Source: an uncultured Candidatus Saccharibacteria bacterium (lineage in GTDB: Bacteria > Patescibacteriota > Minisyncoccia > Phycocordibacterales > Phycocordibacteraceae). Taken from it: a stretch of 51,070 bases of DNA. Below are positions 19,325-35,415 of this stretch, piece by piece (position 1 is the stretch's first letter; every line of letters starts with the position of its first letter). Location of the stretch: the NCBI GenBank assembly GCA_964398815.1, contig CAYNNZ010000001.1, positions 1 through 51,070 on the forward strand, written 5' to 3'. The notes under the pieces are model-generated. The model was not told the origin of the DNA. It worked only from the letters and a program-made list of their open reading frames with translations, and ran no database searches. The translations under genes and the position numbers were made by a program.

Positions 19325-20764
19325 CTAGGAAAGGCGCGGGAACAGATTCTCGGGTTTTGTGTTGGAGGAAACAGCAGCAAGAATCGCCACGCTCGTAGAC
19401 GGCATGACGGGCGCGAGATGCGCAGCAATTTTGGCGATGTGGCGAACCAGCTTCTCGATATCAGCAACACCTGCGGCTTTCGTACTCTCGTCTTTCACCT
19501 TCTTATACGGCTCGTTCGCCGTCATATACTCATCCCCCTTGCCGATATGCTCCCAAATCAAATCCATGGCCTCATTGAATTTAAATTCGTTCACGAGCTG
19601 CGTGAACGCAGGCTCGATTGCGGTGTCGTCTTCGCTTAGTGCGACAGGGCCGGAAAGATTATCTTCCGCGAGTTTCATCACACGCGCTACCAAATTCCCG
19701 ATTCCGTTTACCAGATTTGCCAGATACCACTCATCAAGGCGCTCCCACGTGACGTCTGAGTCTTCGACCGGATGCACGTGACGTAGAAGAAGGTACCGAG
19801 TCGCATCGGTGCCGTACTTCTCAACGAGCTCATACGGGTTAATGACATTTCCGAGAGACTTGCTCATCTTCTGACCGCCCGACGTTATGAATCCGTGATA
19901 GAACACCTGATCGGTATTCTTGATGCCCGCTGAAAACAGCATGGCCTGCCACATGAGCGACTGGAATCGCACCTGGTCTTTGCCTGCCATCTGGAGCGTG
20001 TGACCTCCTGCCCAGAATTTCTTGAATTTGCCTTCGGCGTCATCCGGCCATCCGAGCGTAGAGATGTAGTCAGTAAGCGCATCGAACCACACATACATGA
20101 CCTGCTCATCGTCTCCAGGAACGGGAACACCCCAGGAAAGACGGGCCTTCTCGCGGGAGATACTGAAGTCCTCTAGACCTCCTTTCACGAACTCGATGGC
20201 TTCATGGCGACGCCAGTCCGGAATGATTACCCCATCACGCTCAAGATACGCAAGCAATTCATTCGTGTAGTTCCCGAAGCGGAAGAAATAATTCTCTTCT
20301 TCCACAAGCTCCGGCTTTAGGTTCGTGTGGATGAGACAGTGTCCATCATCCGACAAGTCCTTCTCCGTCTTATACAGTTCGCATCCGACGCAGTACAAGC
20401 CCGAGTAGGTTTTTTTATAGATATCGCCCTTCGCCTCGCATCTGCGCCACATCTCCTGTGCGGCTTCAACGTGATAGCGCTCCGTAGTTCGAATGAAAGC
20501 ATCATTCGTAAGACCGAGGGCATCATGCAATTTCTTGAATTCAAGCGCGTAATGGTCGACATAGGTCTGCACGTCCTGACCGTTCTTCTGTGCCGCCTCG
20601 AAAATCTTCTGACCATGCTCGTCTGTACCGGTATTGAAAAATACCTCCTCGCCTGCCGCTCTCCAAGTGCGTGCGATAGCATCGGTCTGCACGAACTCAA
20701 GCGCGTGGCCCAGATGCGGGTCCGCGTTCACATACGGAAGCGTGGTGGTTATGTACTTAGCCAT
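19325..20764 (-). CDS. metG: methionyl-tRNA synthetase (short form without the C-terminal tRNA-binding domain)
   Basis: HIGH region (PYVNADPHLGHALE) and KMSKS (KMSKSLGNVI); 479 aa. Confidence 0.95.
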   Translation of the reverse strand: MAKYITTTLPYVNADPHLGHALEFVQTDAIARTWRAAGEEVFFNTGTDEHGQKIFEAAQKNGQDVQTYVDHYALEFKKLHDALGLTNDAFIRTTERYHVEAAQEMWRRCEAKGDIYKKTYSGLYCVGCELYKTEKDLSDDGHCLIHTNLKPELVEEENYFFRFGNYTNELLAYLERDGVIIPDWRRHEAIEFVKGGLEDFSISREKARLSWGVPVPGDDEQVMYVWFDALTDYISTLGWPDDAEGKFKKFWAGGHTLQMAGKDQVRFQSLMWQAMLFSAGIKNTDQVFYHGFITSGGQKMSKSLGNVINPYELVEKYGTDATRYLLLRHVHPVEDSDVTWERLDEWYLANLVNGIGNLVARVMKLAEDNLSGPVALSEDDTAIEPAFTQLVNEFKFNEAMDLIWEHIGKGDEYMTANEPYKKVKDESTKAAGVADIEKLVRHIAKIAAHLAPVMPSTSVAILAAVSSNTKPENLFPRLS

Positions 20765-21813
20765 TAGACAGCTTCGGCGCGCTTTCGCTTCCCGCGCGCC
20801 ATGTCCGAGAGGAATTCGCGCAGTGCTGCCGCGACCGGAATGGCAAGAAGAACGCCGAGGAATCCGGCGAGGTCGCCTCCCACAATGAGCGCGAGAATGA
20901 CGAGGAGCGGCGGGATACCCACCACCTTATTTACGACAAGCGGATGGATGAGATGCGCCTCGAACTGATTGATGATGAGGTAGAGGCCTGCGACGATGAG
21001 GGCGAGCGTGATATCTCCCGTCGAGAACGCGACGATGATAGCGGGTGCGGCAGAAATGAATGAGCCGAATATTGGGATGAGCATCGCAACCGCAGTGAAC
21101 GCCGCAAGCAAAAGCGCATATGGAACACCGAGAATGAGGAGGCCAAGATATGCGATAACACCGCCAATCAGGGAGGACAAGAGCTGACCCTGCATCCAGA
21201 GCCCAATCTTGCGCTGCGCTCGACGCCAGAGGCCAACCACGTACTCCTCGTTCTTTGCAGGAGTGATGAGTTTGAGGAACTCCTCCACGCCGGTGTCCTG
21301 CACGGCGAAATAGAACGAGAGCACCGTCACGAGGACGAGCGAGAATATACCACCGAAGAAGGTCGAGACGATTTTGAATGCTCCGGCAGAAGGGTCGGTA
21401 AACGCGCTGCGGAACGTAAGTAAACCGTCGAGAATGCCGGATAGTTCAGAACGACCGCCAGTCGCTGCGGCTCCGGTATTAATAGCGCCCGGCAAATCGA
21501 ACGTGTCGAGATACTGGGAAGCAACCGAGATGAAGTTGCCCGCGTCTTCGAGAATCGGAGGGAAAAAGAAGTACACGACCGAGAACAGTGAGCCGAACGT
21601 AAGGAAATACATGAGGAACACGGCGAGTACGCGCGGTATTTTGCGACGAGCAAAAAACGCAACGCCCGGCTCGATTGCAGAGGCAATCACGATGGCGGTC
21701 AACACAAGGAGGGCCAGGTCTCGGAGCACCCACACCGCGTAGGCGATGGCCCCGATTATGATGGTCGTTATGACCGTCGCAGGGGTGATTGCGACCTGTA
21801 TTTGCTTATCCAT
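20764..21813 (-). CDS. AI-2E family transporter (PerM/UPF0118)
   Basis: 349 aa, 7-8 TM helices, with the family-typical C-terminal half (..FGSFISAAPAIIVAF..INQFEAHLIHPLVVNKVVGIPPLLVILALIVGG). Confidence 0.85.
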   Translation of the reverse strand: MDKQIQVAITPATVITTIIIGAIAYAVWVLRDLALLVLTAIVIASAIEPGVAFFARRKIPRVLAVFLMYFLTFGSLFSVVYFFFPPILEDAGNFISVASQYLDTFDLPGAINTGAAATGGRSELSGILDGLLTFRSAFTDPSAGAFKIVSTFFGGIFSLVLVTVLSFYFAVQDTGVEEFLKLITPAKNEEYVVGLWRRAQRKIGLWMQGQLLSSLIGGVIAYLGLLILGVPYALLLAAFTAVAMLIPIFGSFISAAPAIIVAFSTGDITLALIVAGLYLIINQFEAHLIHPLVVNKVVGIPPLLVILALIVGGDLAGFLGVLLAIPVAAALREFLSDMARGKRKRAEAV

Positions 21814-21820
21814 ACTCCGG

Positions 21821-21829
21821 ATACTAGCA
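21821..21829 (-). promoter_or_regulatory. extended -10 element (TGcTAGTAT) 7 nt upstream of the AI-2E transporter ATG
   Basis: Minus strand TGC TAGTAT (21829-21821), 7 nt, ATG (21813). It follows the upstream terminator hairpin GGGGCGGTCTC-GTGA-GAGACCGCCCC. Confidence 0.45.
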
Positions 21830-21867
21830 CAAAACGAGTACGGGGCGGTCTCTCACGAGACCGCCCC

Positions 21868-22305
21868 TTATTCCATGACACCCGTAGGTGTTCCCCGCCA
21901 CTGGCAGGGCTCATGGAACGTTCCGTGCCGAGTGCGCCGCGGATGTCGGACCAGCCACGGTGCGTCTGCAATCGACGCCCACTGACCCTCTGACCTCGGA
22001 GTGAGCTCACAGATTTCGATAATGATTTCTGGGTGACCTTCGCGCAGCCGGTCAGCGAGCTCCACCGCAATGTCCTCAGTTGCATAGAGTGGCCACGTAG
22101 TCCCGGGAGGCGGCGCAAGCTGTGCGTCGAATGCCCTATCCGCGCCAACGAACCCATATGCGTGCCAGGCCTTGAGAGTGCGCGTGTGTGCGGGATCAGT
22201 GCCTGCTCGTGGAATCAGCCGGAACGGTCCCTGTGGTTCGTCTGCATGCGCAGACAGGTGAACGAAGGCCGCGATGAACGCGACCACGATGGTGCGCTTT
22301 CGCAT
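21868..22305 (-). CDS. secreted hypothetical protein (orphan)
   Basis: Start is set at MRKRTIVVAFIAAFVHLSAHA (signal peptide), preceded by AAGGAAG 8 nt upstream. GC looks higher than in neighbouring genes. Confidence 0.6.
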   Translation of the reverse strand: MRKRTIVVAFIAAFVHLSAHADEPQGPFRLIPRAGTDPAHTRTLKAWHAYGFVGADRAFDAQLAPPPGTTWPLYATEDIAVELADRLREGHPEIIIEICELTPRSEGQWASIADAPWLVRHPRRTRHGTFHEPCQWRGTPTGVME

Positions 22306-22373
22306 CGAATGAACTTCCTTTCTTCCCAATTAGAGGGAAGGCTCAGTTAATACGAAAAAGAGTCAGTGTGCAA

Positions 22374-23771
22374 CTACGCGAGAGACGCACGAATGCGCTC
22401 CACGGCCTCAGCAATCGTGACGCGCTCCTGCTCACCCGTATCGCGGTTGCGGAGCGTCACCGTATCGAGCTGTTCCGGATTCTCGCCGAGCGTGTCGAAA
22501 TCTATAGTGACGCAGAATGGCGTGCCAATTTCGTCCTGCCTGCGGTATCGCTTTCCAATGTTTCCATTGTCATCGAACGCGGCACGGATTCCGGACTTCT
22601 TGAGGGCTGCATACACCTCGCGCGCTTTGTCGACGAGCTCAGGCTTATTCTTCAGGAGCGGAAACACTGCCACCTGATACGGAGCGAGTGACGGATGGAG
22701 CGCTAGATATACGCGCGTCTCGCCACCTAGTTCGTCTTCCCGGTATGCGTCCGCAAGAAAGGCCATGAACATGCGACCCATTCCGGTTGAGGTCTCGAGA
22801 ATCCACGGAATGTATTTCTCGCCTGACTCTGGGTCGGTGTAGCGCAGGTCTACGCCGGAGAATTCCTGATGCTGCGTGAGGTCATAGTCCGTGCGGTCAT
22901 GGATTCCTTCGAGTTCATCGAAGCCGAGCGAGGGGAAATCATACTCAATGTCCCACGCGTCTTTCGCGTAGAACACGAGATTCTCATGCTGGTGCCAGCG
23001 GAGGTTTTCTGCCCGAATACCGAGTGAGACGTACCAATCGAAACGACGCTTCTTTATTTCTTCGTATGCGTCCTTATTCTCATTTGGGCGGATGAAATAC
23101 TGCGTATCTGCCTGCTCGAACTCCCGCGTACGAAACAGGAAGTTGCGAGGAGAAATCTCATTACGAAAGGCCTTCCCTATCTGCGCTACGCCAAACGGGA
23201 TTTTAGGCGCCATCGTATCCACGATGTTCTTAAAATTGAGATAGATGCCCTGGCATGCCTCGCCCGGAAGGTAGACTGGCTCGCTTCCATTACTGGTGAA
23301 GTCACCAAGGTTCGACTTCACCAACAGATTGAACGCGCGCACCTCGGAGAAGTCCTTCTTGCCGCACTTCGGACACTTGATTTCATTTCGATGTGCATCG
23401 AACAGCGCATTGATGTCCTCGATGGACATTTTCTCGTCTGCGGTCACTCCAATTGCTGCAAGTTCCTTGTCCACGCGAATACGCGTATTGCATGCCCTAC
23501 ATTCTGCGAGCGGGTCAGAGAACCCTCCGACATGCCCGCTCGCCTCCCACGTACGGGGATGCTTGAACATGGCAGCATCGAGTCCGTAATAATTCTCCTG
23601 GTCGTATACGTTCGCCTTCCACCATGCGCGCTTGAGATTATTCAAAAGCTCCACACCGTTTGGACCAAAATCGTAGGTACCCGCGAGTCCTCCGTATATT
23701 TCGGAGCCTGGGTAAATGAAGCCACGGCGCTTAGCAAGCGCAACGATGGTTTCGAGAGACGGCTTTTCCAT
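22374..23771 (-). CDS. glyQS: glycyl-tRNA synthetase (homodimeric class II type)
   Basis: MEKPSLETIVALAKRRGFIYPGSEIYGGLAGTYDFGPNGVELLNNLKRAWW... and the class II motifs. Confidence 0.95.
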   Translation of the reverse strand: MEKPSLETIVALAKRRGFIYPGSEIYGGLAGTYDFGPNGVELLNNLKRAWWKANVYDQENYYGLDAAMFKHPRTWEASGHVGGFSDPLAECRACNTRIRVDKELAAIGVTADEKMSIEDINALFDAHRNEIKCPKCGKKDFSEVRAFNLLVKSNLGDFTSNGSEPVYLPGEACQGIYLNFKNIVDTMAPKIPFGVAQIGKAFRNEISPRNFLFRTREFEQADTQYFIRPNENKDAYEEIKKRRFDWYVSLGIRAENLRWHQHENLVFYAKDAWDIEYDFPSLGFDELEGIHDRTDYDLTQHQEFSGVDLRYTDPESGEKYIPWILETSTGMGRMFMAFLADAYREDELGGETRVYLALHPSLAPYQVAVFPLLKNKPELVDKAREVYAALKKSGIRAAFDDNGNIGKRYRRQDEIGTPFCVTIDFDTLGENPEQLDTVTLRNRDTGEQERVTIAEAVERIRASLA

Positions 23772-23779
23772 AAACTCCT

Positions 23780-25669
23780 TTATTTCACAGAACCGTCCAC
23801 TGCGCTATAGGCAGGGTCCAAGCTCGTGACGGTAGTGAGCGCCTGAACACTTCCCGCTATTTGCTTATCGGTGAACGCGTCCACACCCGTAACCTGCTGG
23901 GCGTTCACGAGGACAGCACTCCCGCCTCTCTGCGTCACACTCGGGGTGAAGCCGATTTGGAACGCCGCTGATTTCGCACTCCCGCTTCCAGTCGCGACCG
24001 TACCCGCCGACCACGTAACCGTGCGCGTCGTCTCGTTGTAGGTGATGGAACCGTCCGCCGGATTCACGGCACCCGTGAACCGTACATAGGACGGGAGCGC
24101 AGCGCTTACCTTAGCGCCAGAAACGCTGTTTCCGGAATTAGAAAGCGTAAAGATGACGGTATAGGTGGTCTCGCTGTTCGCTTCGGGCGGCCACGGGCCT
24201 CCGTTCTTGAATGGACCAACCGTGTGTACGACCTTCGAAGCGAGTGCGAGATTGGTTCCTACCTTTACGGTACGAGAGAGGGTCGATGAAATAGTCTCCG
24301 GCACATTCGTCTCCGAGAGGCGCTGCCCGGAAACAGACACACGCAGGCCAATAGATGCATTACGCACGCTCGCGAGCGCACTCGAGTTCTTCGAGCGAAT
24401 GGTGAATGTGCCCTGTCCACTGTCGCCCGGCTGCAATTGCGCGAGGGCGGGGTTGTTTGTTGAGTCGAACACCACCGTTGCGTCGCTCGAACGATAAAAC
24501 CCGTTCCCCTGCCCCACGCCCGCAGCGTCGAGCGCCTCCCCCGAGAGCGCGACGGAGACTTTCGCATTCGTCACCGGAACCGGGAGCGTATTGGTCCACG
24601 TGACTACTACCTGCACCGGCACGCCAGCATCGACCACCGGTTTATCCGTAGTGTCGCGATTTACCGAGAGCGTGGTCGCGAGGAACGGTTTCGTAAGCCG
24701 GACTGATGCTTCCTTGCTCGTGTAGGAGGCAGCAAGAGCGAGTGATTCCGGAGAATTTACCGTCCCTGCAGAAAATTTAAAGGTGCGCTCGTCGTTATTC
24801 TCACCCGAGAGAATTCCAGTTACTCGGATTTTCTTTTCTTCTCCCGGCGAGAGTGTGCCGAGCACGAACATGGTTCCTTGAGATGGCTGCGGCGTCGAGG
24901 CAGTCGGCGCGAACCCGAACGGATATTCGGCGAGCACCGCGACATTATCGAGCTTGGTCGTCGCATTGCTCTTTATCGATACATCTACCGTAACCGGCTG
25001 ACCTGCAGATACCTGGGATATGGTCTCGACGTTAACCGTAATCGGCGACGTTGTGATGGTGAAATCGTACTGCTTGTTCTTAACAAATGTCGCGGTGCTT
25101 CCATCGGTGTGATATTCGACCTTGATAGGGAGCGTTACGTGCTGGCCCTCACTCCCGAATACGACCGCGCGCACCGTGCGTTCGGTTTTGTTGCCCGACC
25201 CGATATCGCCCAAATTCTCCGTGTAGCGCGGCATGGGCTTAGTGGTGTCATCAGGCGAGCGCGTGCCATCAGGAAAATCGATTGTTACCGTGGCGCCCTG
25301 TATTGCGACTGGGTTGCGATTCTCGATAGTGACGAGGAGCGGGACCGTATCGCCGCTTGCGATAGTGGTTGGACCTTGCACAGCGATATTGACGTTATGC
25401 GTTGAAATCGAGCGACCGCCCCATATGAGATAGAAGACTGCGCCCCCTGCGGTCACAATGAAAAACAGGAGCGCGACAATGAAAAAGCGAGCGTGGCCTG
25501 AGATGTGCTCGGCCTCATGTCCTACCGCCTTCAGTTTTTCCCAGCCACGTGCGCGCTCGACCGGCTGCTCCCTAAGATGCGGTTCCTCAAACGAGGCCGC
25601 TTGATGCGGGTCATAGAGACGTTGGCGAACACGCTCGAGCGAGCTCAGTTCCTCTTTCTCGTCTGGCAT
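23780..25669 (-). CDS. large membrane-anchored protein with repeated beta-sandwich (Ig-like) domains, hypothetical
   Basis: 629 aa with a cytoplasmic N-terminus, one TM helix (FFIVALLFFIVTAGGAVFYLIWGG), then Thr/Ser/Val-rich repeats. Confidence 0.85.
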   Translation of the reverse strand: MPDEKEELSSLERVRQRLYDPHQAASFEEPHLREQPVERARGWEKLKAVGHEAEHISGHARFFIVALLFFIVTAGGAVFYLIWGGRSISTHNVNIAVQGPTTIASGDTVPLLVTIENRNPVAIQGATVTIDFPDGTRSPDDTTKPMPRYTENLGDIGSGNKTERTVRAVVFGSEGQHVTLPIKVEYHTDGSTATFVKNKQYDFTITTSPITVNVETISQVSAGQPVTVDVSIKSNATTKLDNVAVLAEYPFGFAPTASTPQPSQGTMFVLGTLSPGEEKKIRVTGILSGENNDERTFKFSAGTVNSPESLALAASYTSKEASVRLTKPFLATTLSVNRDTTDKPVVDAGVPVQVVVTWTNTLPVPVTNAKVSVALSGEALDAAGVGQGNGFYRSSDATVVFDSTNNPALAQLQPGDSGQGTFTIRSKNSSALASVRNASIGLRVSVSGQRLSETNVPETISSTLSRTVKVGTNLALASKVVHTVGPFKNGGPWPPEANSETTYTVIFTLSNSGNSVSGAKVSAALPSYVRFTGAVNPADGSITYNETTRTVTWSAGTVATGSGSAKSAAFQIGFTPSVTQRGGSAVLVNAQQVTGVDAFTDKQIAGSVQALTTVTSLDPAYSAVDGSVK

Positions 25670-25689
25670 GAATACCAGTATAGCGCGGC

Positions 25690-26250
25690 CTATAATCCTG
25701 ACGCGCTTATGCCGCGATTGATGCGCGAAATGAGCTCGGCGCGATGGGCCTCTGCGTAGGTAAGCGCATCGGGGCCGTACCCTTCCGGCGGGATACCGCC
25801 CGCATCCACGCCGAGCGCAGCGAGAAGACGGAGCGCCACGAGCGCTTCTGCGTTCGCCTGCTCCTCTTCAGATAATTCTGGAAGCACCTCCGTGAACTCA
25901 GTGAACAAGCGATGCAGTTCAGGGTCATCACTATCACCATGCACGAGGCGCAACAGAAGCCCAGCGACGCGCGCAACGCGCATGCGTCCGGTCCGTGAGA
26001 GCGCCTGGAATCGGTCGCGACCGAGTACTGCCCCGGTAAGCCGCCACCCTTCCTTGCCTCGCACCAACATCAAATCGGATTCGCAGAGCGCCTGGAGTGC
26101 ATGCGCAAGCTTCGCCCCTGAGCGACGGAGGCCTTCTGCACGAGCGCGGATGAGACCTAGGTCGGGCGTAAGCACCGTAACGAGCATCCCTGCTTCCGCG
26201 ATAGGCGTGCGTGCGAGCACGAGTCCCTGCGTGTCGTACTTATGACGCAT
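25690..26250 (-). CDS. recO: DNA repair protein RecO (short form)
   Basis: N-terminal OB fold (TQGLVLARTPIAEAGMLVTVLTPDLGLIRARAEGLRRSGAKLAHALQ) and a helical C-terminal part. Confidence 0.8.
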   Translation of the reverse strand: MRHKYDTQGLVLARTPIAEAGMLVTVLTPDLGLIRARAEGLRRSGAKLAHALQALCESDLMLVRGKEGWRLTGAVLGRDRFQALSRTGRMRVARVAGLLLRLVHGDSDDPELHRLFTEFTEVLPELSEEEQANAEALVALRLLAALGVDAGGIPPEGYGPDALTYAEAHRAELISRINRGISASGL

Positions 26251-29200
26251 CGAGAGAAAGCGAGAATCGCACCGTGCCGGTCGAAAGCTCCGCAGTGTAC
26301 TTTCCTTCCGGCGACTCGGCGACAGCGACGATGTCGCGCGGCGAATAGCCCTCCTCCTTACGAGCGTCGTTTACGGCGCGGGCATAGGCTCGCTCATCTC
26401 CCTCTGCGATAAGTTCAGGCGTGAGCTCGGTGTCGAGCTTCATCGCCTCTTGCTTCTGAATGATTTCCTTCACATTCACTTCGTCTGCTAAGAGTTGCGC
26501 CAAATCCTTCGGGAGTTCTCCCGGAATCGAAAGCGAGGCGAGCGGCTGACGCACCTTTACGCCTGCTGCCTGGCGTATGCGAAGCGCTTCAGACGCGAGC
26601 GTACGGACGCTCGCCATGTTCGTAATCAGGTCCGTATCTATCGTGCCTGCCTCGTACCAGTCAGCCAGATGCACACTCTCCGGGTCCTCGTCCTCGCGCA
26701 CCATCTGGTATGCCCACTCAGCGATGAACGGCGTGAATGGCGCAAGGAGTACCGAAATGCTCTGGAGCGTATCGCGAAGTGTGATTACCGCCGCGGCATC
26801 TCCCTCACGTACACGGTCGCGTACACGCCTGACGTACCATTGCGATAGGTCTTCTATGAGCACCGAAATAGTGCGGGTAGCAGTATAGAGATCGTAGGCT
26901 TCGAGTGCTTCGGTTGCCTTTGCGATTACTTCGCTCGTGCGTGTGCGCATCCAGACATCGATAGGCTGCTCAGTTCCCTTCTCACCCGCCTCGCTAAAGA
27001 GCTGGTAGAACTTCACGCTGTTCTCGAACCAGGAGATGACGCGCGCAGATTCCTTCACTGTCTTATCGTCAAAGTTCTTGCTGTCGCCCGGCTGATTTAC
27101 GCTATACATCCATAAGCGCAGTGTGTCCGCGCCATATCTATCCATCGCGCTCATCGGCTCGATGATGTTGCCCTTCGACTTACTCATCTTGAGCCCCTTC
27201 TCGTCGAGGAGGTGCCCGAGGGAGATGACATTCTTATACGCCCGACCCTTGCCCATGAGCACACCCACCGCGAGCAAGGTATAGAACCAGCCACGCGTCT
27301 GGTCTATCGCTTCGCTGATGAAATCTGCTGGGTACCCCTTCCCATCTACCCACTCCTTGTTCTCGAACGGATAGTGGTCCTGCGCAAACGGCATGGCACC
27401 GGAATCGAACCACACATCCATCACTTCCTTCGTGCGGCGGAGCTCCTTGCCCGAGTCACTGATGAGAACGACTTCGTCTATGTACGGGCGATGCAGGTCG
27501 AGCTCGTAATTCTCGTTATGCGGTAACGGCACGAACGGTAGCTCTCTCAGTTCGCCGCGACGTGCATGCATGGTCTCGAGCAGCACCGGCAATTCTCTCT
27601 TCGGCTGCTCAACCACTGTGCGCATCGCCTCTACACCGCATCCGTGCGTAACAACCAGGATAGTTTCGTTTGCGTGCGTGCTCTCAAGCTCATACAGGAA
27701 TGCGCCGAATCGCTTCGTTACGTCCAGATAGCTTTCGCCCCCAGGAATAGCATCCCTAAAGGTGTGGGACTTGAAGTACTCGACTGCAGCGTCGATGGGT
27801 CCGCCATTGAAATCACCGAACTCAAATTCGCGCAGCCGTGAGTCGTACACAATGGTAGCGACATCAATCCCAAGCGCCTGTGCCACATACTCCGCGGTCT
27901 GTCGGCACCGCTGCAGTGGTGAAGCGAATATCCGAGTGACGTTCTTATCAACCAGTTCTGCAGCCGCCTTCTCTGTTTGCTTGACGCCCTCCTCAGTAAG
28001 GCAGGAGGACGAGTCAAGATTAGAGTTCGCAACACCGAGCAGATTATGCTCCGCCTCTCCGTGGCGCATGACGAAGTACCGGTTCCCGCTCTTTTTCACG
28101 CGCGTGCGCAGGTCATCTATGGACCCCACTACCACCTGCTCGCTTCCGTCCTCAGAAAGCCATACCGGAAGTGGCGTTCCCCAATAGCGTTCGCGCGATA
28201 TCGCCCAGTCGCGCACGTTCGCGAGCCACTCCCCCATGCGACCGTCGCGCATGTATGCCGGCTCCCAGTTCACCTTCTGATTCTCTTCGATGAGGTAGTC
28301 CCGCATCTCCGTCATGCGGAAATACCATGAGTCGCGGGCGTAGTAGATGAGGCGGTTTTTACTGCGCCAGCAGTGTGGGTACGAGTGCGTGTAGCTTTCT
28401 TTCGAGAAGAAGAGATTCTTCTCCTGAAGGTCCTTGAGTACCGCGACGTTGGTCTCAGGGTCTATCACGGACGCGCCCTCGAGGAATCCCGTCCCCGCCA
28501 TGAACGTGCCATCTGGCTGCACGAGGTGCACTTTCGGCAGCCCCACAGCATTACCGAGCTCGAAATCGTCTTGGCCGTACATGACCGCGGTATGCACGAT
28601 TCCGGTGCCGTCCTCAGTCGTAACGAAATCAGCGGCGTACACCTGATACGCCTTATCGAATTTCACCTTCTCGCTCTCGCTTGCGAGTTCCTGTGCGAAT
28701 GGATAGAGGGGGTTGTATGACTTTCCGACAAGCGCGCTTCCCGGACGCGTCTCGATGAGACTCCATCCTTCCGGAAGTTGTGCCGCAAGTTCCGTTGCAA
28801 GCACCACGCGTTCCTTATCCTTTTCGTACACGCCGTATGCAATATCCTTCCCTACTGCAAGCGCGATGTTGCCTGGAAGGGTCCATGGTGTCGTCGTCCA
28901 CGCGAGCAGGTACGTACCCGGCTCGTCTGTGAGTTCGAACTTAGCCGTGATGGAAAGGTCCTTTACGTCCTCATACCCTTGCGCAAGCTCGTGTGACGAA
29001 AGTCCCGTCCCGCACTTCGGACACCACGGCACGACACGGTAGTCTTTGTAGAGTCGTCCGTCGTCTGAGACTTTCTTAAACACGCTCCAGAGTGACTCCA
29101 TGTAGTCTGCGTCGAAGGTGAAGTATGCGGTGGCTTGGTCTGCCCAGAAACCGAGGCGCTCCGAGAATCGCTCCCACTCGTGAATGTAATTGAAAACACT

Positions 29201-29575
29201 CTCACGGCACTTCTTATTAAATTCGGCGATGCCGTATTTCTCGATATCCTGCTTCCCTGTGAATCCAAGCTGCTTCTCCACCTCAAGCTCAACTGGAAGC
29301 CCGTGCGTGTCCCAGCCAGCGCGACGCGGCACATGGAATCCGCGCATGGTCTTGTAGCGCGGTATCGCATCCTTAAAGGAACGGCTCTCCATGTGGTGAA
29401 CACCCGGCCTGCCGTTTGCGGTAGGTGGCCCCTCGTAGAAGACGAAGGTGTTCTTCTTATTCCCGCGCTCGCGTGCCTTGCCAGCGATATCGTTCTCCTT
29501 CCAGAAAGTAAGGACTTCTTCTTCGCGTTTGGCGGCCTCGGAGCGCTCCGGTGCGTCTGTATCTATATCGGCCAT
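26240..29575 (-). CDS. ileS: isoleucyl-tRNA synthetase carrying an inserted histidine-phosphatase domain
   Basis: HIGH region (PPTANGRPGVHHMES), CP1 editing motif (TTPWTLPGNIALAV), WAISRERYWGTPLPVW, DLHRPYIDE and KMSKSKGN. Residues ~497-685 look like a phosphoglycerate-mutase-type histidine phosphatase (RHGEAEHN ... SPLQRCRQTA ... VVTHG). Confidence 0.95.
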   Translation of the reverse strand: MADIDTDAPERSEAAKREEEVLTFWKENDIAGKARERGNKKNTFVFYEGPPTANGRPGVHHMESRSFKDAIPRYKTMRGFHVPRRAGWDTHGLPVELEVEKQLGFTGKQDIEKYGIAEFNKKCRESVFNYIHEWERFSERLGFWADQATAYFTFDADYMESLWSVFKKVSDDGRLYKDYRVVPWCPKCGTGLSSHELAQGYEDVKDLSITAKFELTDEPGTYLLAWTTTPWTLPGNIALAVGKDIAYGVYEKDKERVVLATELAAQLPEGWSLIETRPGSALVGKSYNPLYPFAQELASESEKVKFDKAYQVYAADFVTTEDGTGIVHTAVMYGQDDFELGNAVGLPKVHLVQPDGTFMAGTGFLEGASVIDPETNVAVLKDLQEKNLFFSKESYTHSYPHCWRSKNRLIYYARDSWYFRMTEMRDYLIEENQKVNWEPAYMRDGRMGEWLANVRDWAISRERYWGTPLPVWLSEDGSEQVVVGSIDDLRTRVKKSGNRYFVMRHGEAEHNLLGVANSNLDSSSCLTEEGVKQTEKAAAELVDKNVTRIFASPLQRCRQTAEYVAQALGIDVATIVYDSRLREFEFGDFNGGPIDAAVEYFKSHTFRDAIPGGESYLDVTKRFGAFLYELESTHANETILVVTHGCGVEAMRTVVEQPKRELPVLLETMHARRGELRELPFVPLPHNENYELDLHRPYIDEVVLISDSGKELRRTKEVMDVWFDSGAMPFAQDHYPFENKEWVDGKGYPADFISEAIDQTRGWFYTLLAVGVLMGKGRAYKNVISLGHLLDEKGLKMSKSKGNIIEPMSAMDRYGADTLRLWMYSVNQPGDSKNFDDKTVKESARVISWFENSVKFYQLFSEAGEKGTEQPIDVWMRTRTSEVIAKATEALEAYDLYTATRTISVLIEDLSQWYVRRVRDRVREGDAAAVITLRDTLQSISVLLAPFTPFIAEWAYQMVREDEDPESVHLADWYEAGTIDTDLITNMASVRTLASEALRIRQAAGVKVRQPLASLSIPGELPKDLAQLLADEVNVKEIIQKQEAMKLDTELTPELIAEGDERAYARAVNDARKEEGYSPRDIVAVAESPEGKYTAELSTGTVRFSLSLDAS

Positions 29576-29611
29576 GATTCATCAATCCTAGCGTCTGCGC
29601 CGCCAAAAAGG

Positions 29612-29650
29612 AAACGGCCCCGCGCTCGCGCGCAGGGCCTTCTCGTTAGT
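29612..29650 (-). terminator. intrinsic terminator after the 29670..29990 gene
   Basis: Minus strand GGCCCTGCGC-GCGA-GCGCGGGGCC followed by GTTTCCTTTTT. Confidence 0.75.
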
Positions 29651-29669
29651 CACTCGTACCGGCTGCCGG

Positions 29670-29990
29670 TTAGGCGGCCAGCGAACGCTCTTCGGCCTCG
29701 TCGGCTTCAGGACGTTCCTTGCGGGCCGGCTTGATGCGGACCACGTTGGATCCGAGGAGGGCGAGCACGCCGTCCTGGATGAAGTGCGGAACGACCCACG
29801 GCCGCCGGCTGTCGAGCGCCTGCTTGCGCTCCTTGAACGCCTTCCGTCCCTGGCTCTTGGTCAGGCCGGCCGATACGGCCAGCTCTTCGAAGAACGCCTT
29901 CATGTCCACCGCATTGGTGTTATTCGTGAAGGCCGTCCGGATCGACTCGGACGCATTGAACGTGGGCATCGCCCCCTTAACATCGGTCAT
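29670..29990 (-). CDS. small hypothetical protein (106 aa, GC-rich orphan)
   Basis: Start is set at MTDVKGAMPTF..., preceded by GGAAGGG 7 nt upstream. A segment (MKAFFEELAVSAGLTKSQGRKAF) faintly resembles the first helices of HU-type proteins, but the rest does not. Confidence 0.6.
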   Translation of the reverse strand: MTDVKGAMPTFNASESIRTAFTNNTNAVDMKAFFEELAVSAGLTKSQGRKAFKERKQALDSRRPWVVPHFIQDGVLALLGSNVVRIKPARKERPEADEAEERSLAA

Positions 29991-30081
29991 GTTTTCCCTT
30001 CCGATTTGGTAGGTTCGCACGAGTGAAATGGAATGTGCGGACCAGCGCGCACAATAGCGCACTGGGTGCGGGCGCACAAGA

Positions 30082-31749
30082 CTACATTCGTTCTGGGGTG
30101 GGGATGGCGAGAATACGTAGGCCGTTCTCCATCGTGGTCGCAAACGCCTTCGCAAGAATCAATTTGTACGCTTCCCCTTCGCTTCCGAGCACCTGCTCGC
30201 TGGCATAGAAAGAATTCCACTCGCTCGCGAGCTTGGTAAGGTACTGCGTGATTTTGTGAGGAGCGCGTTCGCGTACCGCTTCAGCGCATACTTCAGGAAA
30301 TCGCACGATAAGCCGCTCAACTCCGTATAGTTTTTCGGGTGCAGTTGCATCCGTTTCTGCTTCTGTCGCGTACGAAAGAATCTTGCGTGCACGCACGAGC
30401 GCGTACTGCAGATATGGTCCCGTGTCACCATCGAGCGCGAGCGATTTCTCTATATCAAAAATAATGTCGCCGCCCGCTGCCTGCCTAAGCATCATGTATT
30501 TAATGGCACCCAGTGCGACCGCTTCGGCGATAAGCGGGTCTTCGTTCTTTTCGCTCGCGCGCTTCATGACCTCACCAATGAGTTCGTCAGCCGTAATCAC
30601 GTTTCCTTCGCGAGACGACATTTTTCCTGAGGTGAGTCGAAGGAAGCCGTGAGGAACGTGCTCGGTCTTGGCGCCCACCAGCGGAGCAAGTTCCTCGAGC
30701 GCCGCCTTCACGACTGCAAAATGACCTACCTGCTCGGCAGCAGTGAGAATGTAGCGGGTGTCTGAAGGCACGCGCTCTTCCACCATGAAAGCGAGTCCCA
30801 CCTCCTTCGCTTCATAGGTAGGAGTTCCTTGCGAGGTAATAAATACCAGTGTGTGGAGGCCTTTCTTCTCTCCCTCATAAATGACGGCTCCCTCGCTTTC
30901 TTTGAACACTCCGCGAGCGAGCCCATCGCGCACGAGTTCTGTTCCCGGCTTTGCGGTCTCGCTCTCGAAGAAGTAGTAGTCGAAGTGCGTATCAAGGCGC
31001 TTATAGAGTTCACGAAACGCTTCAAGCGAAATTTCTTTTCCTTTGCGCCACAGTTCCATCAGCTCCGCATCTTCTCCAAGATATATGGAGCGGTTAAGTG
31101 CATCTATTTCGCCCTTAGTCTCATCACTCTCCTCGTAAGCGCGTGAGCCGTGCGCGTACGCATCCCCGATTTCCTTTGCGGTCACTGGCTCAGTGATGCC
31201 CTTATCGCGCAGACCCCACAGCGCTTTTGCCACATGCGGTCCGACATCTCCGCCGTAGCTATCGCGCGTCACCTGTGCCCCTTCATTCTCAATGGTGCGC
31301 GAAAGTGCCTCGCCCAGGACGGTCGACATAAGGTGCCCTATATGGAGTTCCTTGAACGGATTCGGACAGGAGAACTCAATCGAGTAGCGCTTTCCAGAAA
31401 GCGTCGAGCCCTTTCCCCACTCGCTCCCGAGCGCAGCTGCCTCCTTAATGATTCCCGAGATGACCGGCCGCGCGAGCGTGAAGTTAATGAATCCCGGCCC
31501 TGCGACTTCTACCTTCTCCACGGAATCTGAAAGTGCTCCTCGCAAGGTCTCTGCAAGTTCATCGGCCAACTCCTTTGGATTCCTGCCCAAGGCTTTAGCC
31601 GCTGCCATGGCTGCGTTCGTGGCGTAATCGCCATGGACCATGTCAGCAGGCCACTCAATAGCGAATACGGTATCTGGCGCCCCCGCTTCCGTGAGTGCGC
31701 TCGTTACTGCTTGGCGCAGTTTCTCTTCCATACGGCGAGTATACGCCAT
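30082..31749 (-). CDS. argS: arginyl-tRNA synthetase
   Basis: 555 aa with the N-terminal Arg-tRNA-synthetase add-on domain, HIGH (NPFKELHIGHLMS), and the C-terminal DALR anticodon-binding domain ending ..RM. Confidence 0.95.
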   Translation of the reverse strand: MAYTRRMEEKLRQAVTSALTEAGAPDTVFAIEWPADMVHGDYATNAAMAAAKALGRNPKELADELAETLRGALSDSVEKVEVAGPGFINFTLARPVISGIIKEAAALGSEWGKGSTLSGKRYSIEFSCPNPFKELHIGHLMSTVLGEALSRTIENEGAQVTRDSYGGDVGPHVAKALWGLRDKGITEPVTAKEIGDAYAHGSRAYEESDETKGEIDALNRSIYLGEDAELMELWRKGKEISLEAFRELYKRLDTHFDYYFFESETAKPGTELVRDGLARGVFKESEGAVIYEGEKKGLHTLVFITSQGTPTYEAKEVGLAFMVEERVPSDTRYILTAAEQVGHFAVVKAALEELAPLVGAKTEHVPHGFLRLTSGKMSSREGNVITADELIGEVMKRASEKNEDPLIAEAVALGAIKYMMLRQAAGGDIIFDIEKSLALDGDTGPYLQYALVRARKILSYATEAETDATAPEKLYGVERLIVRFPEVCAEAVRERAPHKITQYLTKLASEWNSFYASEQVLGSEGEAYKLILAKAFATTMENGLRILAIPTPERM

Positions 31750-31814: not shown

Positions 31815-33080
31815 TTATTTGAACGAGTCAGGGATGGGATGGGATTCAGCGAGTTCCTTGATGCGCTTCCCTACGTTCTCGACCGTCGCATCGTCGCGCT
31901 TCGTGAGCACTTCAAGCATGAGCGAGGCTACTTCCTTTGATTCTTCTTCCTTGAATCCGCGCGTCGTCATTGCGGGCGTGCCAAGACGGATGCCCGATGG
32001 GTCCATAGGCTTTCTGGTATCGTCCGCAATTGAGTTCTTGTTGAGCGTGATGCCTGCTTTATCGAGAAGGGTCTCCGCGTCCTGGCCCGAAATACCGAAG
32101 GAACCGAACACATCAGCGAGAATTAGATGATTCTCAGTCCCGCCCGCAATCATGCGCAGACCACCTGCTTTAAACACATCTGCCATTGCTGCAGCGTTTC
32201 GCACCACCTGAGCGGCATAATCGCGGAACGACGGCTCGAGTGCCTCACCGAATGAGACTGCCTTTGCGGCAATCTGGTGCATATGCGGACCGCCCTGAAG
32301 TCCCGGAAACACGGCCTTATCTATTTTCTTCGCAATCTCCTCGCTCTCTCGCGTGAGAATCATGCCTCCACGCGGACCGCGAAGTGTTTTGTGTGTGGTG
32401 GTAGTCATCACGTCGAAGCCGTACTCAAACGGATTCTTTTGAGCGCCTCCTGCGATGAGGCCAGCGATATGTGCGACGTCTGCCATTGAGACCGCGCCTA
32501 CTTCCTTCGCAATATCAGCGATGCGCTTCCAGTCGAGCTCGCGCGGGTACGCAGAAAATCCTGCAAGAATCACTTTTGGCTTTTCTTTAAGGGCAGTTTC
32601 GCGGAGCGCGTCGTAATCAATCTCGCCGGTGTCCGGGTCCTTCATCTTGTAGCGGATGAAATTGAATATTTTCGAGATATAGGTGACTGGATGGCCGTGC
32701 GTGAGATGACCACCATGCGAGAGGTCCATGCCAAGGATGGTGTCGCCCGGCTCCATGAGCGCCATGTAGGCGGCAATGTTCGCATTCGCACCGCCCAAGG
32801 GCTGCACGTTCGCATATCCGGCACCGAAGAGGCGCTTCGCGCGGTCGATCGCAATCAACTCCACCTTGTCGGTGAATTCCTGTCCGCCGTAGTAGCGCTT
32901 CCCGGGATATCCCTCCGAATATTTATTAGTGAGAATGGAGGACATCGCCTCGCGTACTGCCTGGGATACGTAATTCTCTGAGGGAATGAGTTCGAGCCCC
33001 TCGGCTTCGCGCTTTTCTTCGCCTTCGATGAGGGCGAATATATCTGGGTCTTCTTTGTGGATGTGTTCGTACGGATTCAT
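31815..33080 (-). CDS. glyA: serine hydroxymethyltransferase
   Basis: LELIPSENYVS, GYPGKRYYGG, the TTTTHKTLRGPRGG PLP-lysine motif. Confidence 0.97.
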   Translation of the reverse strand: MNPYEHIHKEDPDIFALIEGEEKREAEGLELIPSENYVSQAVREAMSSILTNKYSEGYPGKRYYGGQEFTDKVELIAIDRAKRLFGAGYANVQPLGGANANIAAYMALMEPGDTILGMDLSHGGHLTHGHPVTYISKIFNFIRYKMKDPDTGEIDYDALRETALKEKPKVILAGFSAYPRELDWKRIADIAKEVGAVSMADVAHIAGLIAGGAQKNPFEYGFDVMTTTTHKTLRGPRGGMILTRESEEIAKKIDKAVFPGLQGGPHMHQIAAKAVSFGEALEPSFRDYAAQVVRNAAAMADVFKAGGLRMIAGGTENHLILADVFGSFGISGQDAETLLDKAGITLNKNSIADDTRKPMDPSGIRLGTPAMTTRGFKEEESKEVASLMLEVLTKRDDATVENVGKRIKELAESHPIPDSFK

Positions 33081-33138
33081 AGATCGATGGCTATCGAGTA
33101 AAAGGTCGGCCGATGAATCTCGTTACACCATAGGTCCA

Positions 33139-33834
33139 CTATACCCTCGCGGTTAATTTTTCGACAATCGCTCGCACGTCCGCGTGAATCGCTTCAGGAG
33201 TACGGAGACCTCCCTCCTCCATGCACTCGACCACATGCCAATTATTCTCACGATTCGCGAGCCATGAGGCGGTCGTATGACTTCGTTCCAAATACTGACG
33301 GTCCTCTTCGACCATGTCGCGAACACCATCCCCAAGCGTTTGGTTCTTCGCTGCGCGTTTCTCGGTCAGTAATCGAAGACTGGTCTCAACCGGAACACTT
33401 AAGTAAATAATCGCGTCTGGCCGCGGCACGTTAAGCACTTCATGCTCCATGCGATCAAGCCAGCCCAGAAACTCGATACGCTCGCGCTCGTCTGCGATCT
33501 TTCCGCCTTGATGGATCTGGTTTGAGCTCGCGAAACGATCAGCGATTACGACCTTTCCTTCTGCAAGCGCGTCTCGGATGGCGTCAGATGCCTCGTGACG
33601 GTCCGCGGCATAGAGTGTTGAGGCAATGCGCGGACTGAGGTTAAGAAAGTCTCCGTGCTGCCCGGCAAGACACTCTCCGAGAAAGGTCCCAAAAAAACTT
33701 CGTCCATATGCGGGAAAATCGAACTTCTGATGCGGGTGTCCGGCTGCCGCAAAGTGGCTCGCAAGCATGGCTGACTGCGTCGCCTTGCCGGACCCATCAT
33801 TGCCGTCGAACACCACAAATATGCCCTTCTGCAT
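33139..33834 (-). CDS. tmk: thymidylate kinase
   Basis: P-loop FVVFDGNDGSGKATQ and the DRF motif (IADRFASSN). Start is set at ATG 33834, 6 nt downstream of a TATACT box. Confidence 0.88.
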   Translation of the reverse strand: MQKGIFVVFDGNDGSGKATQSAMLASHFAAAGHPHQKFDFPAYGRSFFGTFLGECLAGQHGDFLNLSPRIASTLYAADRHEASDAIRDALAEGKVVIADRFASSNQIHQGGKIADERERIEFLGWLDRMEHEVLNVPRPDAIIYLSVPVETSLRLLTEKRAAKNQTLGDGVRDMVEEDRQYLERSHTTASWLANRENNWHVVECMEEGGLRTPEAIHADVRAIVEKLTARV

Positions 33835-33840
33835 CACCCT

Positions 33841-33848
33841 AGTATACT
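33841..33848. promoter_or_regulatory. palindromic AGTATACT box: shared -10 for divergent tmk and thyA
   Basis: TATACT reads on both strands: on + at 33843-33848, 7 nt before the thyA ATG (33856); on - at 33846-33841, 6 nt before the tmk ATG (33834). Confidence 0.5.
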
Positions 33849-33855
33849 GGTGCGG

Positions 33856-34689
33856 ATGGAACAGCCCTACCTCGACCTCCTCAAGGAAGTAATGGAGCAC
33901 GGCGTAGACCGAGGCGACCGCACGGGCGTCGGAACACGGGCTTTATTCGGAAAAACCATGCGCTTCTCCCTCGCTGAGGGCTTCCCGGCTGTAACCACGA
34001 AGAAGCTGGCATTCAAGGCGGTGAAAAGTGAATTGTTGTGGTTTCTGGAGGCGAGTACGGACGACAACCGGCTCAAGGAGTTGAACGGGAGCGAGAAGAC
34101 TATCTGGACCGCGAACGCAGAGGCGGAGTACTGGAAGCCGAAGGCGAAGTACCCGGGAGATCTCGGTCGAGTATATGGGGTGCAGTGGCGTAAGTGGCAG
34201 AAGCCGAATGGCGAGACCGTCGACCAAATAGCTGATGTTATCGCGCAGATAAAGAAGGATCCGGAAAGCCGACGACTTATCGTTACCGCTTGGAATCCAG
34301 GCGAATTGGATCAAATGGCGCTTCCTCCTTGCCACATGTTCTTCCAATTTTTTGTTGCGGACGGAAAGCTTTCACTCTATATGCATCAACGGTCATGCGA
34401 TATGTTCCTCGGCGTTCCGTTCAACATCGCCTCATATTCGCTCTTGCTTGCAATGGTGGCGCAAGTAACGGGGCTCGCTCCCGGTGAATTCATTCATTCG
34501 CTTGGTGATACTCACATATATCAGAACCATTTCGATGCCGTGAAGGAACAGCTCACCCGCGAGCCGTACCCTGCCCCAACGCTCTGGCTTAATCCCGAAG
34601 TTACCGACATAGACGGGTTCACGATGGATGACATTAAGCTCGTCGACTACCAATCGCACCCCACCATTAAGGCGGAAATGGCGGTGTAG
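33856..34689 (+). CDS. thyA: thymidylate synthase (ThyA type)
   Basis: MEQPYLDLLKEVMEHG.. DRTGVGT..FG, and active-site PPCH (ALPPCHMFFQF). Confidence 0.96.
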   Translation: MEQPYLDLLKEVMEHGVDRGDRTGVGTRALFGKTMRFSLAEGFPAVTTKKLAFKAVKSELLWFLEASTDDNRLKELNGSEKTIWTANAEAEYWKPKAKYPGDLGRVYGVQWRKWQKPNGETVDQIADVIAQIKKDPESRRLIVTAWNPGELDQMALPPCHMFFQFFVADGKLSLYMHQRSCDMFLGVPFNIASYSLLLAMVAQVTGLAPGEFIHSLGDTHIYQNHFDAVKEQLTREPYPAPTLWLNPEVTDIDGFTMDDIKLVDYQSHPTIKAEMAV

Positions 34690-34713
34690 GAGGTGCGGTA
34701 TACTGTCGCGACT

Positions 34714-35415
34714 ATGGCACTTTCAGACCGACGCATTCTCGAGGAAATGAAGAAGGGAGATATTGTTATTTCCCCATTTAGCACTGAGCAGCTTGCGACA
34801 TCCAGCTATGACGTCACGCTCGGTGAATGGTTCTTCCGCGAGCAGACACCGAATTACAACCACTCTCTCTACAACATCTGGGACCAGGCCCATGTCGAGC
34901 ACGTATGGGGCGCGAAGAAGGTAGAGCGCGCGGTGCTGGCAAAGGAGGCGTTCAAAAAATACAACTTCGAATGGAACGGCATACGTCCTGACGACAAGGT
35001 CATCATCCTACGTCCGGGTGAAACGATTCTTGGGCACACGCAAGAATTCATCGGCGGCAAAGACCACATCACTACCATGATGAAGGCGCGCAGCTCGCTT
35101 GGTCGCAATTTCATCGAGGTGTGCAAATGCGCTGGCTGGGGCGATGTCGGCTATATCAATCGCTGGACGATGGAGATTACGAACAACTCTACTCACTACA
35201 TTATTCCGCTCGTCGTAGGACGCCGCATCGCCCAGATTATTTTCTTCGAAACCGGGCCCATTCTTGCCAAGGACTACGCAGCAAACGGTAAGTACGCAAG
35301 CTCAACGGACGTAAAGACGCTGATGCGCGAGTGGAAGCCGGACATGATGCTCCCGCGCCTCTGGGCTGATAAAGACATAAGGAAGAAGCAGCCATGGCAC
35401 AAGAAGGCCAAGTAA
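34714..35415 (+). CDS. dcd: dCTP deaminase family protein (long form)
   Basis: MALSDRRILEEMKKGDIVISPF...SSYDVTLG...ARSSLGR are typical of the Dcd/dUTPase fold. TATACT lies 9 nt upstream of this ATG. Confidence 0.85.
   Translation: MALSDRRILEEMKKGDIVISPFSTEQLATSSYDVTLGEWFFREQTPNYNHSLYNIWDQAHVEHVWGAKKVERAVLAKEAFKKYNFEWNGIRPDDKVIILRPGETILGHTQEFIGGKDHITTMMKARSSLGRNFIEVCKCAGWGDVGYINRWTMEITNNSTHYIIPLVVGRRIAQIIFFETGPILAKDYAANGKYASSTDVKTLMREWKPDMMLPRLWADKDIRKKQPWHKKAK

Follow-up and report, generated by a model that had tools for sequence, protein, structure and literature searches.

The window analyzed here is a stretch of 51,070 nucleotides from an uncultured Candidatus Saccharibacteria bacterium (assembly GCA_964398815.1, contig CAYNNZ010000001.1, positions 1 to 51,070). 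Its minus strand carries a complete ileS gene, and the isoleucyl-tRNA synthetase (IleRS) that it encodes contains a histidine-phosphatase domain nested in a surface loop of the catalytic core. An intact, in-frame domain of this kind inside the catalytic body had been proposed in a first-pass annotation made from the sequence; sequence, profile search, structure prediction and comparison with relatives now all agree on it. The insert is a lineage-wide trait, carried by hundreds of public sequences from metagenome-assembled genomes (MAGs) in which it has passed unremarked, and is not peculiar to the source genome. The reading that we put forward is about as likely as not: a working IleRS would display an active phosphomonoesterase, for which it would mainly be a carrier and whose substrate would probably be a nucleotide or a small phospho-metabolite.

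A histidine phosphatase is nested in the IleRS catalytic core

The segment 27521-28087 (minus strand) translates to residues 497-685 of the 1111-residue protein (GNRYFVMRHGEAEHN...ELPFVPLP). When searched alone, this segment matched PF00300 with high significance (E=1e-34, 120.4 bits with a gathering score of 21.7) over profile positions 2-154 of 194. In the full-length protein, PF00300 was placed by Pfam at residues 501-650, flanked by two PF00133 (tRNA-synt_1) stretches. The reading frame is unbroken, and the domain lies between the two PF00133 stretches. In agreement with the first-pass annotation, the gene is not a pseudogene, and the domain was not fused on at a terminus. The parts of the gene are as follows.

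26240..29575 (-): complete ileS, encoding a type-2 IleRS with a nested phosphatase, 1111 amino acids plus stop (open reading frame (ORF) list, TIGR00392, AlphaFold2 (AF2) model)
28088..29575 (-): IleRS N-terminal part, residues 1-496, with the first Rossmann half, the connective peptide 1 (CP1) editing domain and the second Rossmann half as far as the host hairpin (PF00133 stretch 21-496; 1ILE 11-482)
29393..29404 (-): GVHH, the swapped non-canonical HIGH motif of IleRS2, residues 58-61 (aligned to HVGH of 1ILE)
28868-28900 (-): WTTTPWTLPGN, editing-domain motif (verified by translation)
28160..28183 (-): WGTPLPVW, conserved IleRS motif directly 5′ of the host hairpin in the chain (1ILE alignment)
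27521..28087 (-): inserted histidine-phosphatase domain (His_Phos_1, branch 1), residues 497-685 (PF00300, AF2, Foldseek)
27476..27535 (-): C-terminal junction FVPLPHNENYELDLHRPYID, a short, proline-rich, conserved linker through which the chain re-enters the IleRS hairpin (counterpart in the 1ILE alignment, FDPHRPYVD)
26243..27520 (-): IleRS C-terminal part, residues 686-1111, with the remaining Rossmann fold, the anticodon-binding domain and the C-terminal domain (PF00133, PF09334, PF08264; 1ILE 488-818)
27398-27418 (-): DVWFDSG (verified by translation)
27176-27190 (-): KMSKS, residues 796-800 (verified by translation)

The alignment to 1ILE stopped at query residue 495 (1ILE 482) and restarted at query residue 692 (1ILE 488). 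From this break we deduce that ∼196 extra residues stand in place of a loop of ∼5 residues in 1ILE, which bears out the unusual spacing first noticed at this site. In the best-matching solved structures (1ILE and the P. megaterium IleRS2), only a few residues bridge the site, and no solved-structure match extended across the site or the domain. In Thermus, cysteines in a CxxC...CxC arrangement clamp the hairpin whose tip this loop forms, and these cysteines are absent from the window protein. The CxxC zinc knuckle that follows WGTPLPVW in T. thermophilus is likewise missing, with LSEDG in its place. The host element is a small beta-hairpin that interrupts the second Rossmann half and corresponds to the zinc-knuckle hairpin of T. 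thermophilus; we take it to be probably the CP3 element, an assignment of our own. In a paper on the yeast IleRS, the CP core, CP1, CP2 and CP3 are named with no residue ranges in the text.

Modelled in isolation by AF2, the domain reached a predicted local distance difference test (pLDDT) score of 93 and a predicted template modelling (pTM) score of 0.90, and within the full-length model its pLDDT was ∼84-95. The Foldseek neighbours of the domain model were PspA (4IJ5, the best solved-structure match), GpgP (4QIH) and PhoE (1EBB), with template modelling scores (TM-scores) of 0.70-0.77 and E=3e-13. With the wider set, TIGAR and CobC included, target-normalised TM-scores were 0.52-0.77, and all of these neighbours are small-molecule phosphatases. 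On these models, the domain is an independently folding branch-1 histidine phosphatase of ∼190 residues at the tip of the hairpin. The linkers around it, KKSGN before and FVPLPHN after, are short and conserved.

Recent horizontal acquisition was considered. The GC content of the insert (0.561) matches that of the rest of the gene (0.567). Codon-frequency correlation was somewhat lower for the insert, at 0.60 vs. 0.75 ± 0.04 for control chunks, a comparison that is not corrected for amino-acid composition. The inserts are acidic (mean net charge −9, isoelectric point 5.2).

The insert is present across a lineage

In the 120 best-scoring orthologue clusters from a 5.8-billion-protein database (60-75% identical, 1107-1158 amino acids), PF00300 lay inside IleRS in 120/120. 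The named sources were MAGs of Parcubacteria, Paceibacteria/Paceibacterota and Kaiserbacteria, with some contigs >600 kb. [quoted passage not shown] In a scan of GTDB with one genome per species, at least 594 stretches encode a relative (594 of the 600 pattern matches listed), and all but one of the best 80 stretches aligned across the whole insert. An exhaustive profile search of 1.84 billion representatives yielded 404 clusters (50% identity) that match the insert profile at E≤1e-30. The identical 1111-residue protein, with the same neighbour genes, was assembled independently from at least three samples (DRR623197, JGI 3300045318 and SRR12487046).

Short database matches to PF00133 plus PF00300 were considered as split genes or free-living ancestors. 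This was ruled out by their contigs, which are frameshift-ridden and on which neighbouring genes are broken too. Two such proteins (P0194 and P0195) are fragments, because both end in the IleRS junction motif. Public copies of the insert-bearing protein carry automatic annotations, most often 'class I tRNA ligase family protein'.

Catalytic residues are conserved in a fast-evolving domain

The motifs quoted in the first-pass annotation were all found, namely RHG (504-506), N511, SPLQR with R556, LRE with E583, GGES (612-615) and THG with H644. The catalytic positions and their conservation in the 120 orthologues are as follows.

28058..28066 (-): RHG (R504, H505, G506), residues 504-506, phosphate-binding Arg and predicted nucleophilic His (R504 and H505 in 120/120)
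27908..27910 (-): R556 (SPLQR), second arginine of the putative phosphate pocket (120/120)
27827..27829 (-): E583 (LRE), predicted general acid/base (118/120, the other two Asp)
27641..27646 (-): H644-G645 (THG), predicted second catalytic histidine (H644 in 120/120)

N511 was kept in 113/120 orthologues, and the insert measured 195-203 amino acids in every one of them. Over the window and 74 GTDB species-representative loci, R504, H505, R556, E583 and H644 were each present in 75/75. The domain as a whole changes faster than its host: mean column conservation was 0.58 in the insert and 0.85 in the Rossmann segments, and the orthologues were 45% identical to the query over the insert vs. 70% over the remaining protein. 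Conserved catalytic residues in a fast-evolving domain are the pattern expected of purifying selection on catalysis. The domain looks catalytically competent, and we infer that it is active.

Outside the catalytic set, only the IleRS inserts have the helix motif FLYELE, in which conservation of Y628 and E631 is 90% or more. At the C-terminal junction, F681, L692, D693, H695, P697, I699 and D700 are invariant, and conservation is likewise 90% or more at P683, P685, H686 and N687. One insert-bearing IleRS fragment (P0011) reads IVTYEG at the second catalytic His, where THG stands elsewhere, and represents either an inactivated lineage or a sequencing error.

The host is a type-2 IleRS

The ORF at 26240..29575 (minus strand) scored 823.4 bits against the NCBIfam ileS model TIGR00392 (cut-off 621.4), with one matching stretch on either side of the insert. 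Its closest sequence matches of known structure were 1ILE (T. thermophilus IleRS, E=5e-219) and 8C8W (P. megaterium IleRS2, E=3e-216). The full-length AF2 model (pLDDT 83, pTM 0.75) gave target-normalised TM-scores of 0.76 to 8C8U and 0.80 to 1ILE. Residues 200-401 matched 1WK8, a structure of the IleRS editing domain alone (E=1e-33), PF08264 (Anticodon_1) was found with E=8e-24, and a PF19302 match in the C-terminal part was sub-threshold (22.7 bits, cut-off 27). With GVHH, KMSKS, the CP1 editing domain and the anticodon-binding domain intact in the sequence, the host is a complete type-2 IleRS and presumably fully active. Membership in the family of IleRS with a GNAT domain (NF040702) was ruled out (313.8 bits vs. 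a cut-off of 1999).

The HIGH motif has a variant specific to IleRS2, G/AXHH; its GXHH form, which is known from some of these enzymes, makes them hyper-resistant to mupirocin (PMC10485003). Among the close orthologues, 111 of the 120 could be motif-matched, and 110 of these have GVHH or GIHH, the remaining one having GLHH. More distant insert-bearing IleRS have the canonical HYGH, and the insert occurs on both GXHH and HYGH IleRS2 backbones.

Family assignment of the insert

The PF00300 score, the set of R504, H505, R556, H644 and E583 and the alpha/beta fold place the insert among the branch-1 histidine phosphatases. The label 'phosphoglycerate mutase (PGM)-like' given by the first-pass annotation holds at the superfamily level and fails below it, where the insert is nearer to the PhoE/PspA/GpgP subgroup. 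Models of cofactor-dependent PGM (dPGM) were not satisfied: TIGR01258 gave 28.8 bits vs. a cut-off of 81.7, the archaeal dPGM model NF038349 gave 80.9 vs. 225, and PRK14115-type models gave <30 bits. The dPGM substrate-binding signature (ERHYG, WRRS and HGNS, located after the catalytic Glu and after the second His) is lacking in the insert, which reads LREFEFGDFNG, has no WRRS and has THGCG.

Other assignments were tried and rejected, namely CobC alpha-ribazole phosphatase (TIGR03162, 85.2 bits vs. 162.9; PRK15004, 59 vs. 250) and PspA-type phosphoserine phosphatase (NF045917, 76.7 vs. 350). The RNase H/acid phosphatase model NF005567 scored 81 bits, also under its cut-off. Because identity is 22-28% and every equivalog cut-off was failed, substrate specificity is not transferable from these families. 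The nearest database protein of another architecture was the stand-alone P0010 (E=2e-23), followed by RNase H fusions among others (P0015, P0019 and P0022, 4.5e-13 to 5e-8).

Additional copies and inserts in ValRS

The relatives have one to four His_Phos copies, and about 10 of 145 representatives (50% identity) have at least two. P0211 carries two tandem copies in the same IleRS loop. In P0264, the copy in the usual loop is joined by a second (residues ∼871-1061) at the start of the anticodon-binding domain, and both have all catalytic residues. In the two-copy IleRS variants, the R-H-N-R-E-H set is kept in both copies; an extra pattern match in P0241 could not be aligned.

P0259 has an additional P-loop AAA_18 (kinase-like) domain at residues ∼747-863, in another loop, between DCWFESGSMPYA and PADFIAEGLDQTRGW, and no other of the 145 inspected representatives has one. 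The idea that a P-loop kinase domain recurs in these proteins was therefore dropped, the other pattern matches being the KMSKS region. An 'end-healing' argument, in which a kinase would be paired with the phosphatase, was abandoned because only P0259 has AAA_18.

One relative, P0150, is a valyl-tRNA synthetase (ValRS) with four His_Phos copies. In a search with it, PF00300 was present in over half of the closest ValRS clusters, which are labelled Gracilibacteria or Peregrinibacteria (P0150 and P0292-P0409). In most ValRS inserts, RHG begins 24-33 residues past DWCISRQ...WGH(R/Q)IP, in a loop homologous to the IleRS site; some ValRS use, additionally or instead, a site upstream of DWCISRQ. The ValRS inserts are catalytically less strict, with the Glu in 52/71 and the second His in 63/71. 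Similarity amounts to 65-76 bits between the IleRS and ValRS inserts vs. 225-240 bits within each class. Because the between-class similarity is only generic, the two represent separate captures or a very old split, and a single origin of both is unsupported.

Possible functions of the insert

If the IleRS displays an active phosphomonoesterase, His505 would, by analogy with the superfamily, accept the phosphate from a phosphomonoester (or the terminal one of a nucleotide), with Arg504, Arg556, His644 and Asn511 holding the phosphate and Glu583 acting as the general acid. The phospho-histidine at position 505 would then be hydrolysed. IleRS would serve as a constitutively expressed carrier, tying the dosage and location of the phosphatase to the translation machinery of gene-poor cells. 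We infer, more weakly, that the synthetase is mainly a carrier and that the phosphatase acts not on tRNA but on a nucleotide or a small phosphorylated metabolite, because the inserts are acidic, copy number and site vary, and the structural neighbours are metabolite phosphatases. The acidity is unlike that of an RNA-binding module. Of the substrates suggested in the first-pass annotation (a phosphorylated tRNA end, a nucleotide by-product or an unrelated metabolite), the charge, the variable copy number and the alternative sites lean towards an unrelated metabolite or a nucleotide.

Some points count against this reading as a whole. The ileS context holds housekeeping genes only (MetRS, a class II aminoacyl-tRNA synthetase (aaRS), RecO, ArgRS, serine hydroxymethyltransferase (SHMT), Tmk, ThyA and Dcd), the contexts of the free-standing relatives P0010, P0016 and P0018 give no functional hint, and all NCBIfam equivalog models stayed far under their cut-offs, leaving the insert without an assignable substrate. 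Other observations favour a function tied to the synthetase: His_Phos domains from unrelated subfamilies sit in the homologous loop of two different class Ia enzymes, the short conserved linkers and the FLYELE helix motif suggest a fixed docking geometry, and internal insertion is much rarer than terminal fusion, so that a chance recurrence of hitch-hiking seems unlikely. Fixation of two different subfamilies in that loop, in IleRS and in ValRS of separate CPR lineages, and the orientation suggested by the linkers and the class-specific helix would fit a phosphatase coupled to aminoacylation. Such an enzyme would act on a tRNA whose 3′ end is blocked (by a 3′- or 2′-phosphate, a cyclic phosphate or a toxin-added pyrophosphate), on AMP or another nucleotide by-product, or on a phosphorylated residue of the synthetase, and its insertion would serve proximity to the active site. 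The best NCBIfam matches include the nucleotide-like CobC (alpha-ribazole-5′-phosphate), an RNase H/acid phosphatase fusion and, weakly, MutT1, in line with such substrates. We consider this coupling possible but unlikely, since the domain is acidic (net charge about −9), up to four tandem copies and other sites, such as the anticodon-binding domain, fit poorly with a precise geometry, the open-access and bioRxiv literature searched yielded no histidine phosphatase that works on RNA ends, and the repair of tRNA(Ile) or tRNA(Val) alone would be of limited cellular use. Its boldest form, in which CPR class Ia synthetases have repeatedly recruited an active phosphatase into the same core loop for an unknown aminoacylation-coupled step, is doubtful; if true, that step (for example, unblocking of a phosphate or pyrophosphate at the CCA end as a reversal of damage or toxin action, or nucleotide processing) would be a third aaRS activity beside synthesis and editing.

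It is improbable that the insert is a 'missing' stand-alone enzyme, either PGM or a PspA-type phosphoserine phosphatase, hidden under the IleRS annotation. PspA is the best solved-structure match and SHMT lies two genes from ileS, but the PspA model reached 77 bits against a cut-off of 350, the dPGM models fail, and the dPGM signature is absent. The insert does belong to the PGM superfamily, and Jaffe et al. (PMC7304191) report PGM as undetectable in several Parcubacteria clades. Gracilibacteria and Absconditabacteria, however, are largely without glycolysis (PMC8406219), and the ValRS of Gracilibacteria nevertheless carries one to four such domains. Quite improbable is a regulatory module, in which phospho-metabolite binding or phospho-H505 would allosterically tune IleRS to energy or phosphate status, or which would act on another protein. 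Allosteric switches classically have this topology, with a domain inserted rigidly into the catalytic core; conservation of the phosphate-binding residues is strict, and SixA was weakly matched (43 bits vs. a cut-off of 74.5). SixA, Sts-1 and PGAM5 are branch-1 members that act on proteins. Tandem arrays and alternative sites would be unexpected for a tuned switch, however, the structural neighbours are metabolite phosphatases, and conservation of E583 argues for turnover and not for binding alone. Finally, we give almost no weight to an artefact or decay product, be it a chimeric assembly, a pseudogene, an intein-like element or a dead structural spacer. Some relatives are short fragments, P0011 has TYEG for THG, and ValRS inserts sometimes are without the Glu or the second His; the fragments, however, come from frameshift-ridden assemblies, hundreds of orthologues are intact with invariant catalytic residues, and the insert in the window has a composition like that of its host gene. 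Those orthologues, the GTDB relatives and the intact identical protein in at least three samples rule out a chimeric assembly or pseudogene, and an intein is ruled out because Pfam detected no Hint/intein family, Glu follows the C-terminal HN, and the N-terminal junction reads KKSGN-RYF, so that the junctions are unlike those of an intein with its Cys, Ser or Thr nucleophiles.

Whichever function applies, a second intact enzyme nested in the core of a bacterial class Ia synthetase, and a nested His_Phos domain in particular, was not found described in the open-access papers and bioRxiv preprints searched, despite the intense study of aaRS. The trait is conserved over hundreds of species, multiplies to four copies and is mirrored in the ValRS of another lineage, and the host also has the GXHH motif linked to mupirocin hyper-resistance. 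The consequences would differ: (i) a phosphatase that takes part in the handling of tRNA or nucleotides would add a new activity to the translation apparatus; and (ii) if a metabolic enzyme rides on IleRS, CPR reconstructions that assign one function per gene miss an enzyme, which could bear on the 'absent' PGM of Parcubacteria, and the protein would be a natural case of tolerated domain insertion, useful for protein engineering.

Genomic neighbourhood

The other annotated genes of the window that are considered here are as follows.

6119-8074 (-): large protein, 651 amino acids, PG_binding_1 only
8465-10519 (-): large protein, 684 amino acids, PG_binding_1 only
19325-20764 (-): MetRS
22374-23771 (-): class II aaRS
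23780-25669 (-): large protein, 629 amino acids, no Pfam match in the window scan, faint DUF7974 database match
30082-31749 (-): ArgRS
31815-33080 (-): SHMT
33139-33900 (-): thymidylate kinase
33850-34689 (+): thymidylate synthase
34693-35415 (+): dCTP deaminase-like gene

Four aaRS genes lie on the minus strand within 12.5 kb (19325-31749), and a compact cluster for dTMP synthesis (31815-35415) adjoins them. The start codon of RecO (26248-26250) overlaps the end of ileS by 11 nucleotides. The order ArgRS...IleRS...RecO...large protein...class II aaRS is kept in a distant relative (L001). A small ORF without a Pfam match lies between ArgRS and IleRS (2586-2906 in L086); three independent assemblies each give it 106 amino acids, and its version in the window, at 29670-30155 (minus strand) in the ORF list, has 161 amino acids and a TTG start and overlaps the end of argS. 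Genomic context was rejected as a clue to the substrate, the neighbours in the window and in L001 being housekeeping genes only and the free-standing P0010, P0016 and P0018 lying in unrelated contexts.

The three large proteins (651, 684 and 629 amino acids) are probably cell-surface proteins typical of CPR episymbionts. A protein of the F420-0:gamma-glutamyl ligase family (PF01996) is encoded at 36296-37042 (minus strand), in what seems a metabolically minimal CPR genome.

Comparison with known systems

The protein is, in its architecture, a multi-domain aaRS. Its closest known analogues, end-to-end His_Phos fusions and synthetases with appended domains, do not have the extra domain nested in a catalytic core. 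The stand-alone branch-1 phosphatases (PspA 4IJ5, Rv2419c 4QIH, PhoE/YhfR 1H2E/1EBB, CobC and TIGAR) share with the domain its fold (root-mean-square deviation 2-3 Å), the Arg-His/Asn/Arg/Glu/His constellation and a length of ∼190-210 amino acids; they are free proteins, whereas the window domain is nested inside another enzyme. In the known His_Phos fusions (RNase H/acid phosphatase of the Rv2228c type, NF005567; MutT1, with Nudix and His_Phos, NF052459; PFK-2/FBPase-2), the phosphatase is likewise covalently joined to a nucleic-acid or nucleotide enzyme, but the joins are end-to-end, the partner enzyme is another one, and the models score below their cut-offs.

By motifs, fold and type-2 C-terminal organisation, the host is a member of IleRS2 (1ILE, 8C8U/8C8W and the GXHH subtype). 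It differs from the solved IleRS structures and from the enzymes of the IleRS phylogenomic papers, which are without an enzymatic domain of ∼190 amino acids at this site. The ValRS inserts of Gracilibacteria and Peregrinibacteria are similar in having His_Phos in the homologous loop, in tandem copies too, and differ in the host enzyme, in the CPR lineage, in belonging to a distinct His_Phos subfamily and in their less strictly kept catalytic residues.

Domain accretion in aaRS is a textbook theme, and eukaryotic aaRS carry appended domains. Synthetases with appended domains, such as the N-acetyltransferase IleRS of NF040702, have likewise gained an extra domain, which in NF040702 is enzymatic. 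In contrast, the domain of the window protein is a phosphatase, is located in the catalytic core and not at a terminus, and can multiply in tandem.

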